Sequence record: PV682554.1
DNA from: Escherichia phage 92CQ
Strand: one strand, 5' to 3'
Length of the DNA: 64,000 nucleotides
Of the stretch, positions 57,532 through 58,799 are shown piece after piece. The notes under the pieces are model-generated. The model made no database searches, was not told the DNA's origin, and worked only from the letters and a program-made list of their open reading frames with translations. How positions within the stretch are numbered: position 1 is the stretch's first letter; the number at the start of each line of letters is the position of its first letter. A program made the translations under genes and the position numbers.

Positions 57532-57966
57532 TTAGTTTAAAATTTCTTTTGCAATGGTAGAAGCAAGTTTTCCATCATATTGATTCGGATACTCTGCTTT
57601 AAGGTGTTTCATCATATCTGGCATTTTCTTGCCTGTCAAGGCAAATTCTTCGGCAATAGCTCGAAGATCATCTTCAGATAGCATTTCTGGTAAATATTTC
57701 TCCAGAGTGGTGATATCACGCATAGCTCGCTCACATTTGCTAAGGGAAGCATTAACTTTCTTAAGCGAGTCTAGTTCCTCTTTAGCGTGTGCAATACCAA
57801 TCTTAACAATGTTAATCATAATATCGTCTTCTGATTTGTTTAGATTTGCCTTTTGAGTACGAGCAAGGTCAAACTCACCAATAATATTAGTTAACAAAGC
57901 AAAAGCACCCTTATCGGTTGTACGTGCTAAGATACGATCTGCTTTCATTTGTGTCACAATAGACAT
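57532..57966 (-). CDS. GatB/YqeY-domain protein
   Basis: 144 aa; C-terminal EKYLPEMLSEDDLRAIAEEF...DGKLASTIAKEIL closely matches the YqeY/GatB C-terminal domain pattern. Confidence 0.55.
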   Translation of the reverse strand: MSIVTQMKADRILARTTDKGAFALLTNIIGEFDLARTQKANLNKSEDDIMINIVKIGIAHAKEELDSLKKVNASLSKCERAMRDITTLEKYLPEMLSEDDLRAIAEEFALTGKKMPDMMKHLKAEYPNQYDGKLASTIAKEILN

Positions 57967-57978
57967 TCTATTCTCCTC

Positions 57979-58551
57979 TTATTTGCTAATGCTTTGAGTC
58001 TTGTTTACAACACGGTTTATTGCCAGTGAAGCCCTAGGCTCCGCAATACCTGTTGCATAGATATAAGGATGACCTCTTGGAGACTCCCTCATACCGAATG
58101 AACCTAATTCTAAACCATATTCATCCTCTACGTCAACCCCAATATTAGTGGGTACTAAATATGTTTTAACTCCATAATAAGTAGAGAAGAAACAGCGCAT
58201 AGCGTTAGCATACTCTTCAATTGTAGCATCAGGGTAGAACTCAATCAACTCCAATTTCAAGAAAATATTAAAATGGGTATCATCTAAATTTTCTTCTGTA
58301 CGGTAACATGGTGTTAGTGCCATATACGGATTACCTGCTGCAAATTCAAAACCATCCTTCTCCATTTGCAGGAAAGATTGTTCTGCACTAGCTACATAGT
58401 ATTTACCGTTAGGATGCCCTAATGGGCGATCCTCTTTATTTTCTGGTAGTGTGTACGTTAGTATATCAGCATCCACGAGATATGGAACTTCTAACATTTG
58501 TGCAAATCGACCATAGTAATCAATAGCTTGAGCTATTACTGCAACATTCAT
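57979..58551 (-). CDS. class II aminoacyl-tRNA synthetase-like / AsnA-like catalytic core fragment
   Basis: 190 aa; motif 2-like TPCYRTEENLDDTHFNIFLKLELIEF and motif 3-like YATGIAEPRASLAI; too short for a complete synthetase. Confidence 0.35.
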   Translation of the reverse strand: MNVAVIAQAIDYYGRFAQMLEVPYLVDADILTYTLPENKEDRPLGHPNGKYYVASAEQSFLQMEKDGFEFAAGNPYMALTPCYRTEENLDDTHFNIFLKLELIEFYPDATIEEYANAMRCFFSTYYGVKTYLVPTNIGVDVEDEYGLELGSFGMRESPRGHPYIYATGIAEPRASLAINRVVNKTQSISK

Positions 58552-58799
58552 GATCGACCTCCATTGCGGAATGCACGTTTAGTAATGTTTGACATAGTGA
58601 TCAAATCTTGAAGCGTCATATCAGGAAAATGCTGTTCAAGAACACCTTCAACAGCGCCTACAATATCTGATAACTCAATAAGTTGCATCAGCTTGCAGTC
58701 TTGATCAATAGCATCTTGAAGTTCATAAAGCTCTTCTTGAATCTTAGCAACAGAACCATATTCCTCTTTGCTAATCTCCTTCAAATGATACCCTGCCAC
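58548..58799 (-). CDS. MazG-like all-alpha NTP pyrophosphohydrolase
   Basis: 83 aa; EExxEL...ELSDIV helical pattern (QEELYELQDAID...LIELSDIVGAVEGVL). Confidence 0.45.
   Translation of the reverse strand: MAGYHLKEISKEEYGSVAKIQEELYELQDAIDQDCKLMQLIELSDIVGAVEGVLEQHFPDMTLQDLITMSNITKRAFRNGGRS

Follow-up and report, generated by a model that had tools for sequence, protein, structure and literature searches.

What does a protein of 190 amino acids do that carries the signatures of a class II aminoacyl-tRNA synthetase (aaRS) and is too short to be a complete one? The question is raised by a locus of Escherichia phage 92CQ (sequence record PV682554.1), of which a stretch of 64,000 nucleotides, here termed the window, was analysed. 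Three adjacent genes on the minus strand, at positions 57532 to 58799, encode an 83-amino-acid (83-aa) protein, the 190-aa protein, referred to here as the core, and a 144-aa protein. An earlier note, made from the sequence alone, had read them as one translation or tRNA-directed module consisting of a MazG-like pyrophosphohydrolase, a truncated synthetase-like protein and a YqeY/GatB-domain protein. The three open reading frames are present as that note had described. The analysis points to a different unit, which consists of the core and the 83-aa protein.

Pairing of the core with the 83-aa protein

There is strong evidence, at the level of sequence and gene order, that the core and the 83-aa protein are one physical and functional unit, an obligate pair. 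Searches of a phage collection with tblastn give 272 records for the core and 262 for the 83-aa protein, with near-identical genus counts (core/83-aa: Escherichia 111/112, Caulobacter 13/13, Pectobacterium 10/10, Cronobacter 8/8, Brevundimonas 7/7, Klebsiella 6/6 and Erwinia 6/6). The 83-aa protein is never seen without the aaRS-like core in this collection. Thirteen further loci, from very different phages and metagenomes, were compared with the window. Both domains are found in all of them, adjacent in ten, one gene apart in two (KARL-1 and locus L014) and fused in one (Ma-LMM01 gp131), and the two thus lie within one gene of each other in all 14 loci when the window is included. Fusions make up nine of 144 core-family representatives; the order is always the core followed by the 83-aa domain, with essentially no linker. 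As the fused forms are scattered among unfused nearest neighbours, repeated fusion or fission is suggested. Co-occurrence and fusion together exclude chance adjacency for the pair.

In the window the 83-aa gene and the core gene are translationally coupled, as read from their junction. The stop codon of the 83-aa gene overlaps the start codon of the core in an ATGA at 58548-58551, and the final codons of the 83-aa gene contain the GGAGG Shine-Dalgarno sequence of the core (58558-58562). At the remaining junctions the genes are separated by 10 and 12 nt, and a Shine-Dalgarno-like sequence is present at each; the gene for the 144-aa protein begins 12 nt downstream of the core and has its own GAGGAG. 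The description of the genes as partly overlapping is therefore correct for the 83-aa/core junction and not for the others. The N-terminus of the 83-aa protein, MAGYH..., agrees with that of its homologues and supports the GTG start. The three open reading frames are real genes and not chance frames, because they match PHROG families (E 2.1e-36 for the 144-aa protein, 5e-71 for the core and 2e-43 for the 83-aa protein) and because they recur in the phage collection, the 144-aa protein in 151 records and the other two in the numbers given above. Promoter-like and terminator-like sites in the gene block are at background (31 against 26.9 expected and 5 against 3.8 expected, respectively), and no Rfam structured RNA is found near the three genes.

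Several metagenomic loci show variant arrangements of the pair. On an ENA metagenome contig (k141_148108, locus L015, 4259-5579) the 83-aa domain forms the C-terminus of a shikimate-kinase-family P-loop kinase (Pfam SKI, 75 bits); this fused gene overlaps the start of the aaRS-like core, and a 3-dehydroquinate synthase gene is situated about 3 kb upstream. On a 229-kb JGI contig (Ga0485282_000001, locus L009, 4405-5001) the domain makes up the N-terminal 80 residues of a 198-aa protein. A Logan contig (SRR35831303_5712, locus L007) has the pair among bacterial-looking genes (histidine kinase, LemA, TPM phosphatase, DnaJ and MgtC), and the same 82-aa protein is also present on an 859-kb contig. 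The pair is found as well on a 1.04-Mb contig (JGI Ga0310127_000002, locus L005), where the neighbouring genes mostly have no Pfam match. From the L007 and L005 contigs, the pair family may reach into cellular genomes, prophages or megaphages.

The 190-aa core

Single-sequence searches with the core give no meaningful match among PDB sequences (phmmer) or in Pfam, NCBIfam or PADLOC, and a family profile is needed. The sole aaRS match in Pfam is to tRNA-synt_2d, whose gathering score of 19.8 bits is not reached (12.1 bits); NCBIfam, including its seryl-tRNA synthetase (SerRS) models, has no match, and none of the three proteins matches a PADLOC model of anti-phage defence at E <= 1. An alignment of 43 homologues displays four invariant blocks, YVaSAEQSF, ALTPCyRdE...H.niFLKLE, lELGSfG.R and GTGlAEPR. 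The profile of the core family finds class II synthetases only among PDB sequences, with SerRS 2dq3 the best match (E 7.3e-5), followed by AspRS, PylRS and AsnRS. The core consists of little beyond a catalytic centre and is shorter than every class II chain among these matches, in agreement with the earlier statement that it is too short for a complete synthetase or for AsnA. The core has the class II antiparallel beta-sheet catalytic fold, and its AlphaFold2 model has a predicted local distance difference test (pLDDT) score of 94.9 and a predicted template modelling (pTM) score of 0.89.

Alignment of the core family with E. coli SerRS by hhalign gives a probability of 89% (E 2.4e-6) over SerRS residues 186-345. 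The aligned pairs (core:SerRS) are VPYLV:VPYLV at motif 1, SAEQS:TAEVP at the TxE loop, TPCYRxE:TPCFRSE at motif 2 and FLKLE:FDKVE. In the window protein, motif 1 is VPYLV (P23), the TxE-type loop is S55-A-E57-Q-S, motif 2 is T80-P-C-Y-R84-x-E86 ... F97-L-K99-L-E101, E148-L-G-S151 is present and motif 3 is G166-T167-G-I-A-E-P-R173. Motifs 2 and 3 had already been noticed in the first reading of the sequence. The mapping of the N-terminal part onto SerRS (S55/E57, R84 and F97/K99/E101 to TAE, FRSE and FDKVE) is statistically supported. For motif 3, the match of GTGlAEPR to SerRS GSGLAVGR is seen only in a local C-terminal hhalign alignment that is non-significant (E 0.14), the global mode being meaningless here.

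Conservation was counted in 194-195 family representatives at <=50% identity. S55, E57, R84, F97, K99, E101, D140, E148, S151, T167, P172 and R173 are each conserved in 195/195 or 194/194, the string G166-T167-G-x-A-x-P-R173 in 194/194, P23 in 190/194 and E/D86 in 189/195. The presumed counterparts of these conserved positions, in the complexes of Thermus thermophilus SerRS, form the ATP/Mg2+ site and the serine pocket. Near-absolute conservation of the active-site residues among 195 members is the mark of an active enzyme and sets the core apart from degenerate paralogues; SLIMP, for example, no longer possesses its catalytic pocket (PMC10570016).

The profile search retrieves 1,592 representatives at 50% identity, 1,059 of them with E <= 1e-30. 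Nearly all of the 150 matches listed are 173-205 aa in length, and a Pfam scan of longer variants (219-261 aa) finds no extra domains. Canonical synthetases are absent among the matches listed, and the family is for this reason taken to be discrete. The core is thus a discrete, ancient, stand-alone family and not a decayed synthetase. The word truncated, which had been applied to it, is misleading for a stand-alone family of 1,592 clusters with a near-absolutely conserved active site.

The closest relative of the core is bacterial SerRS and not AsnA, EpmA or BirA/LplA. The comparison proposed in the earlier note, with AsnA, EpmA, BirA/LplA and aaRS cores, therefore comes out in favour of the aaRS core, and of SerRS in particular. 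The core and the catalytic domain of bacterial SerRS (E. coli SerS; 2dq3, 2dq0, 1ser) share VPYLV, TPC(F/Y)RxE, F.K.E and G(S/T)GLA..R, whereas SerRS has 430 aa and the phage core 190, and the core is always accompanied by its MazG-like partner. Identity to bacterial SerRS is 15-20%; identity to the stand-alone paralogues Bll0957, HisZ, AsnA and EpmA is 9-17%, with Bll0957 at 10%. None of these paralogues (Bll0957, 3mey; HisZ, 3od1 and 1z7m; AsnA, 11as and 3p8t; EpmA/GenX, 3a5y) is known to pair with a MazG-type protein, and HisZ has lost catalysis whereas the active-site residues of the phage core are invariant. A closest relationship to HisRS or HisZ, as in the PHROG label of phrog_4806, 'histidyl tRNA synthetase', finds no support.

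The 83-aa partner

The 83-aa protein has an invariant set of residues, G3-Y4-H5, K19, E22-E23-x-x-E26, D29, E42-x-x-D45, T73, F77 and R82. Six of these are acidic (E22, E23, E26, D29, E42 and D45) and are invariant in 124 of 124 members. The AlphaFold2 model consists of three helices, with the EExxE...ExxD residues on helices 17-32 and 36-57; ExxD follows EExxE by 15 residues. We take this arrangement to be the metal-binding signature of all-alpha nucleoside triphosphate (NTP) pyrophosphohydrolases.

Twelve of 17 members match PRA-PH in Pfam (E 0.0013 at best) and three match MazG, in each case short of the threshold; the window protein reaches 15.0 bits where the gathering score is 21.3, the best score seen is 20.4 bits (locus L013), and none of the members scanned reaches the PRA-PH or MazG gathering score. 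With the family profile, PRA-PH 2a7w and MazG-like 1vmg are retrieved at E ~0.56. A Foldseek search with the model ranks PRA-PH, MazG and HisIE first, with probabilities of up to 0.84 and E >= 1.1. The protein is similar in fold to solved all-alpha NTP pyrophosphohydrolases, and an acyl carrier protein (ACP) appears in neither of the two fold searches with the model. Convergent lines, each weak when taken singly, thus support a HisE/MazG-like protein whose metal site is predicted to be intact, and the designation MazG-like stands on the combination of sub-threshold Pfam, profile and Foldseek matches.

As in HisE (1yvw, 6j22) and MazG (3cra, 1vmg, 2yxh), EExxE...ExxD is carried on two consecutive helices. 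Unlike these proteins, the phage protein has three helices only, stays below the Pfam thresholds and carries two additional motifs, GYH at the N-terminus and T..R.F..G.R at the C-terminus, which are specific to its family. A first homology search had returned 22 matches, close relatives only; a re-search with a mixed alignment then gave 1,893 clusters at 90% identity.

The YqeY protein

The 144-aa protein matches Pfam YqeY (PF09424) at 30.4 bits, above the gathering score of 27, with residues 38-143 aligned to model positions 34-143 of 143. The YqeY/GatB C-terminal domain recognized in the first reading is thereby confirmed. The GatB catalytic (cradle) domain is not found in the protein by Pfam, which detects the YqeY tail only, and there is no NCBIfam amidotransferase match. 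Because it is free-standing and has no GatB catalytic domain, the protein is not an amidotransferase, as the label of phrog_1460, 'tRNA amidotransferase', would have it. Elsewhere the domain is part of GatB, and in Deinococcus GlnRS it raises the affinity for tRNA (PMC1865053); the phage version differs from both in being free-standing.

The distribution of the YqeY protein differs from that of the pair. The 151 records in which it occurs include 52 from Vibrio and 45 from Escherichia, and among Escherichia phages it is confined to a phi92-like subset. Twelve of the 13 other loci have no YqeY gene in the neighbourhood of the pair, and the three genes are thus not conserved as a unit, an outcome that the earlier note had named as one that would refute its reading. 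As judged from this distribution, the YqeY protein is a lineage-specific extra beside the pair. A loose functional affinity is possible because YqeY recurs near the pair in the divergent locus L010, where its gene is two genes upstream.

Neighbourhoods of the pair in other genomes

RNA-repair genes are found near the pair in several loci. In loci L012 and L013 RlaP is directly upstream, with an enzyme of the CCA-adding family about 2.5 kb beyond it. The pair is preceded by RlaP and a CCA-adding enzyme in phiTE as well (phiTE_132 is RlaP, E 3.5e-13, and phiTE_136 has an HD domain), and in a Vibrio phage locus (L008) RlaP is 1.3 kb downstream. Damaged RNA 3' ends are extended with nucleotides by RlaP, which also assists in restoring aminoacylation of repaired tRNA (PMC12776372); CCA-adding enzymes and RlaP belong to the RNA-repair repertoire of phages (PMC7824862). 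In CcrSC the pair is located inside an array of 16 tRNA genes, and in locus L009 a gene for a class I synthetase (TyrRS/TrpRS-type, tRNA-synt_1b; 7967-9178) is 2.4 kb downstream of the core. Locus L010 (Logan contig SRR31444226_2745, 3743-6688) has the order YqeY, calcineurin-like metallophosphoesterase, 83-aa protein, core, Macro and R2K ATP-grasp.

A gene for a family A DNA polymerase is situated about 7 kb from the pair in the window and adjoins the cluster of the pair in L010. No universal third partner is found in the 14 neighbourhoods; RlaP, the CCA-adding enzyme, YqeY, Macro, R2K ATP-grasp, radical SAM and SKI kinase recur or appear. The idea that the pair is always next to tRNA genes was ruled out, tRNA genes flanking it in one of nine loci scanned. 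As further observations, an R2K_3 gene abuts the pair on L005, and in the phi92-like phage KMB37 the trio is followed downstream, at about 7 kb, by a gene for a Macro homologue, 41.5% identical to that of L010, beside phosphoribosyltransferase and HAD genes.

Possible function

Very probably, the pair is a two-protein architecture that contains an active adenylate-forming enzyme, as its sequence features predict. For the acceptor, we tentatively favour the 3' end of tRNA or RNA, at somewhat less than an even chance. This estimate is based on the genomic context, the SerRS ancestry, the presence of YqeY and the existence elsewhere of synthetase subunits that are split or have no arm. The core would bind ATP-Mg and a small amino acid, serine or one closely resembling it, from which it would form an aminoacyl-adenylate, most likely seryl-adenosine monophosphate (seryl-AMP). 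In the same complex the partner would bind or cleave the alpha-beta phosphoanhydride of an NTP-type ligand. The activity would be exerted at the 3'-terminal ribose of tRNA or RNA, whereby tRNA ends might be charged, re-charged or protected during infection, as part of a tRNA-maintenance toolkit of large phages. In phi92-like phages YqeY may serve as an optional tRNA-binding helper.

The nearest precedent is SerRS2alpha of invertebrate mitochondria (PMC10570016). It is also derived from SerRS, has lost the arm and kept the catalytic pocket, and is inactive alone, requiring a second polypeptide. The second polypeptide, SLIMP, is a SerRS paralogue that supplies the arm, whereas the phage partner is HisE/MazG-like and has no resemblance to an arm; the phage core is also much smaller than SerRS2alpha.

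A number of points weigh against a role at tRNA ends. The core begins at the motif-1 helix; nothing in it corresponds to the ~170 N-terminal residues of SerRS, which comprise the arm and part of the catalytic domain. The coiled-coil tRNA-binding arm is absent, with no Seryl_tRNA_N match in Pfam; this arm is described as essential for recognition of tRNASer and acts across the dimer (PMC10570016). The motif-2 segment from Arg to Glu, which in synthetases makes contact with the acceptor stem, spans 17-18 residues, has a net charge of about -3 and in most members has no basic residue in the loop, as compared with 24 residues and three Arg in E. coli SerRS, the core loop being 6 shorter. Such a short acidic loop would be unfavourable for canonical binding of the acceptor stem. 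As the arm is missing and the loop is short and acidic, the core would not act as a self-sufficient SerRS, and it is not to be classed as a canonical one (EC 6.1.1.11). The protein as a whole is acidic (net charge -12, isoelectric point 4.6), as is the 83-aa partner (net -7), and this obligate partner is of a nucleotide-hydrolase type and not a known RNA-binding domain. E148, S151, T167 and R173 are candidate counterparts of the Mg and serine sites of SerRS, named from the weak alignment (E 0.14), pattern matching and the T. thermophilus SerRS structures. To our knowledge, most stand-alone aaRS-core paralogues (AsnA, HisZ, EpmA and the amino acid:carrier-protein ligases) do not charge tRNA.

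The genomic context weighs in the same direction. RNA-repair or tRNA-linked neighbours are found in about 8 of 14 loci, which is only a modest enrichment for large phage genomes, and replication and nucleotide-metabolism neighbours are equally common (the window, Ma-LMM01, L005 and L010). The single locus with flanking tRNA genes is CcrSC. In the window the pair lies between the UvrD-like helicase and the glycosyltransferase, primase-helicase and PolA genes, so that replication genes surround it and the tRNA array is not adjacent; a search of the window for relatives of RlaP, the CCA-adding enzyme, Macro and R2K found none. The YqeY domain of GlnRS worked in cis only (PMC1865053). Literature searches aimed at the core family found no biochemical data on any member. 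The suggestion of a tRNA-directed module thus draws some weak support from RNA-repair and tRNA neighbours in other loci and is opposed by the missing arm, the motif-2 loop and the position of the pair among replication genes.

Many of the same features suit an acceptor other than tRNA. Here the core would make seryl-AMP and pass the seryl group to a hydroxyl or amine of a nucleotide, small molecule or protein, and the MazG/HisE-like subunit would make or consume an NTP-type substrate, for example by converting an (aminoacyl-)NTP to the nucleoside monophosphate (NMP). An obligate partner of the nucleotide pyrophosphohydrolase type with an invariant metal site, its fusion with the core into one chain, the acidity of both proteins and of the motif-2 loop, and the replication and nucleotide-metabolism genes in the window, Ma-LMM01, L005 and L010 all agree with this, as do the fusion of the 83-aa domain to a P-loop small-molecule kinase in L015 and the habit of other stand-alone paralogues mentioned above. 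No candidate acceptor or pathway can be named, however, no third gene is consistently kept with the pair, several independent lineages have neighbours linked to RNA repair and tRNA, and there is no evidence of amino-acid modification on phi92-like DNA or nucleotides. A non-tRNA acceptor is regarded as little less probable than a tRNA or RNA 3' end. We know of no pathway that couples the adenylate-forming and NTP-pyrophosphohydrolase chemistries of the pair. In a side reaction, class II synthetases, among them SerRS of T. thermophilus, synthesize diadenosine tetraphosphate (Ap4A); the core might use its bound adenylate to make Ap4A or a related dinucleoside polyphosphate (Ap4N), with the acceptor NTP positioned, or the product hydrolysed, by the MazG-like subunit, and would in this way tune the levels of alarmones or RNA-cap precursors in infected cells. 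Both active sites are of the NTP-Mg type and invariant, the SerRS-type motifs are kept and a fusion would suit channelling between two nucleotide sites. Nevertheless this proposal is entirely inferential and improbable: strict conservation of S55, E57, E101 and T167, which align with the amino-acid pocket, is explained no better than by aminoacyl transfer, the neighbours include no Ap4A-related genes and the associations with RlaP, the CCA-adding enzyme and YqeY are left without a reason.

The precedent of SerRS2alpha, which is functional only when joined in a heterodimer to a partner that has the arm (PMC10570016), also allows a hijack of the host enzyme. The core would heterodimerize with host SerRS through the motif-1 interface and borrow its arm in trans, giving a phage-controlled SerRS or a poison of the host enzyme. 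The arm of a SerRS subunit brings tRNA to the active site of the opposite subunit, the core active site is predicted to be intact, and VPYLV of motif 1 is identical in the phage consensus and E. coli SerRS. VPYLV is present in phages of Caulobacter, Microcystis and Acinetobacter too, however, and because it is shared by phages of unrelated hosts it looks ancestral rather than host-matched. With ~170 N-terminal residues of SerRS missing, part of the catalytic domain included, and with no role for the obligate MazG-like partner, a hijack is still less probable than Ap4N synthesis. Very improbable is a carrier-protein ligase of the Bll0957 kind, in which the core would aminoacylate the 83-aa protein as its carrier or acceptor. 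An ~80-aa protein is indeed always encoded beside the core, and S44 in its ELSD is invariant; yet this serine is in mid-helix 2, inside the ExxD metal motif, a linker-less carrier-ligase fusion would be atypical, the core resembles bacterial SerRS (18-20% identity) and not the Bll0957 type (10%), and no phosphopantetheinyl transferase gene is found among the neighbours. The placement of S44 and the fold searches led to rejection of an ACP or carrier identity for the 83-aa protein. There is just as slight a probability that the core is a non-catalytic accessory like HisZ or Pol gamma B, for example of the nearby family A DNA polymerase, and that the three genes are adjacent by chance. The polymerase gene is near the pair in the window and beside its cluster in L010; against this, near-absolute conservation of the ATP, Mg and amino-acid sites in ~195 divergent members is the opposite of what degenerate paralogues display, and chance adjacency is excluded by the co-occurrence and fusions of the pair.

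In its most far-reaching form, the reading with a tRNA or RNA 3' end can be joined with aminoacyl-nucleotide chemistry in a single proposal: the core would be the smallest natural class II aminoacyl-adenylate-forming enzyme (~180 aa), in which a MazG/HisE-type subunit replaces the tRNA-binding domains, and the pair, a two-subunit enzyme not recognized before, would aminoacylate, protect or reset the 3' ends of tRNA or produce an aminoacyl-nucleotide, as a counter-measure to tRNA-targeting immunity. Taken in its entirety this is distinctly unlikely. If a tRNA 3'-end or aminoacyl-nucleotide enzyme were confirmed, it would constitute a new arm of counter-measures beside phage tRNAs, RlaP, the CCA-adding enzyme and RNA ligases.

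Annotation and novelty

Public records label the genes of the trio 'seryl-' or 'histidyl-tRNA synthetase', 'tRNA amidotransferase' and 'aspartyl/glutamyl-tRNA synthetase'; none of these is borne out as a family assignment, and the mislabels spread via PHROG-based pipelines. The seryl-tRNA synthetase label given to the core in several GenBank records is rejected, the arm being absent and the curated thresholds not being reached. For the small protein, at least two GenBank records already give a MazG-type fold or a phosphoribosyl-ATP pyrophosphatase.

In the literature, including papers on phiCbK, jumbo phages, R2K and RlaP, no description of the core family was found. A minimal SerRS-derived core family, its invariant active site, its partnership or fusion with a HisE/MazG-like protein and its RNA-repair neighbourhoods are likewise undescribed there. 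An obligate and repeatedly fused combination of an adenylate-forming core with a domain of the NTP pyrophosphohydrolase type has no described counterpart. The pair points to undescribed chemistry that large phages would carry out on nucleotides or at the ends of tRNA, and that may be tied to evasion of tRNA-targeting defences.

Gene layout and other features of the window

The trio is part of an uninterrupted run of minus-strand genes. In transcription order these encode the UvrD-like helicase, the 83-aa protein, the core, the 144-aa protein, three glycosyltransferase-like proteins, a DnaB/Toprim primase-helicase, the family A DNA polymerase and a DNA methylase (coordinates of selected features in Table 1). 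The segment 56565-61000 is 97-99.5% identical to many Justusliebigvirus genomes, and the phage is of the phi92/phAPEC8-like E. coli myovirus type (Stephanstirmvirinae).

Table 1. Positions of the paired genes and of other features in the 64,000-nt window
Feature	Position	Strand	Remarks
83-aa HisE/MazG-type all-alpha NTP pyrophosphohydrolase-like subunit	58548-58799	minus	phrog_6408; GTG start
190-aa minimal class II aaRS catalytic core	57979-58551	minus	phrog_4806; closest relative bacterial SerRS
144-aa free-standing YqeY/GatB-tail domain protein	57532-57966	minus	phrog_1460; Pfam PF09424
Translational-coupling junction, 83-aa/core	58548-58562	minus	read directly from the sequence
UvrD-like helicase	58810-60585	minus	first in the transcribed run, upstream of the 83-aa gene
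158-aa coiled-coil-like protein	60548-61024	minus	phrog_20923, E 4e-93
Glycosyltransferase cassette	53960-57514	minus	specific to this phage
545-aa open reading frame of the cassette	55877-57514	minus	TAGT-like domain (Pfam TAGT E 9.7e-5, phrog_2456)
GT-B-like glycosyltransferase	54916-55929	minus	
GT-B-like glycosyltransferase	53960-54904	minus	
tRNA array	4097-6873		

The tRNA array, at 4.1-6.9 kb, is about 51 kb away from the trio. Sixteen tRNA genes are found by ARAGORN and one more by Rfam only (4372-4450, missed by ARAGORN), giving 17, so that the earlier count of about 18 is roughly right. Two ARAGORN tRNAs, 4097-4172 (Met) and 4517-4606 (Ser-UGA), are not listed by Rfam at gathering score. 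The array holds three tRNA-Ser genes, one UGA and two GCU (4652-4737 and 4957-5042).

Downstream of the trio, the 545-aa open reading frame of the cassette combines an N-terminal module of 316 aa with a TET-associated-glycosyltransferase-like domain. The module corresponds to phrog_15930, which is labelled 'ribonucleotide reductase', and occurs as a stand-alone 316-aa hypothetical protein in KMB37. Close relatives do not have the cassette: the best megablast alignment in each top relative begins at 56565, and class III ribonucleotide reductase genes are present there instead. The cassette may be a DNA- or surface-glycosylation module.

On the other side of the trio, the helicase open reading frame is listed from a TTG that is 13 codons upstream of MAKKELSF...; the KMB37 orthologue has 578 aa, and the real start is for this reason probably the MAKKELSF ATG. 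The helicase contains an intein in several close relatives (JohannJBalmer, phiWec187, PHB05, W22 and others), where the matches are split in two, and the window copy is intein-free. The gene for the 158-aa protein overlaps the listed helicase frame by 38 nt. A weak Pfam Seryl_tRNA_N match of this protein (E 0.018) is most likely coiled-coil noise.

Some of the records consulted carry unexpected host names. Proteins of the 'Campylobacter phage' records A145, A110a, B15 and C3 (host C. jejuni) are 76-99% identical to those of E. coli phi92/phAPEC8-like phages, and the same pattern is seen in 'Acinetobacter phage vB_AbaM_ABPW7', 'Pseudomonas phage PsgM04F' and 'Serratia phage KKP_3264'. These records probably represent host mislabelling or contaminating coliphages.

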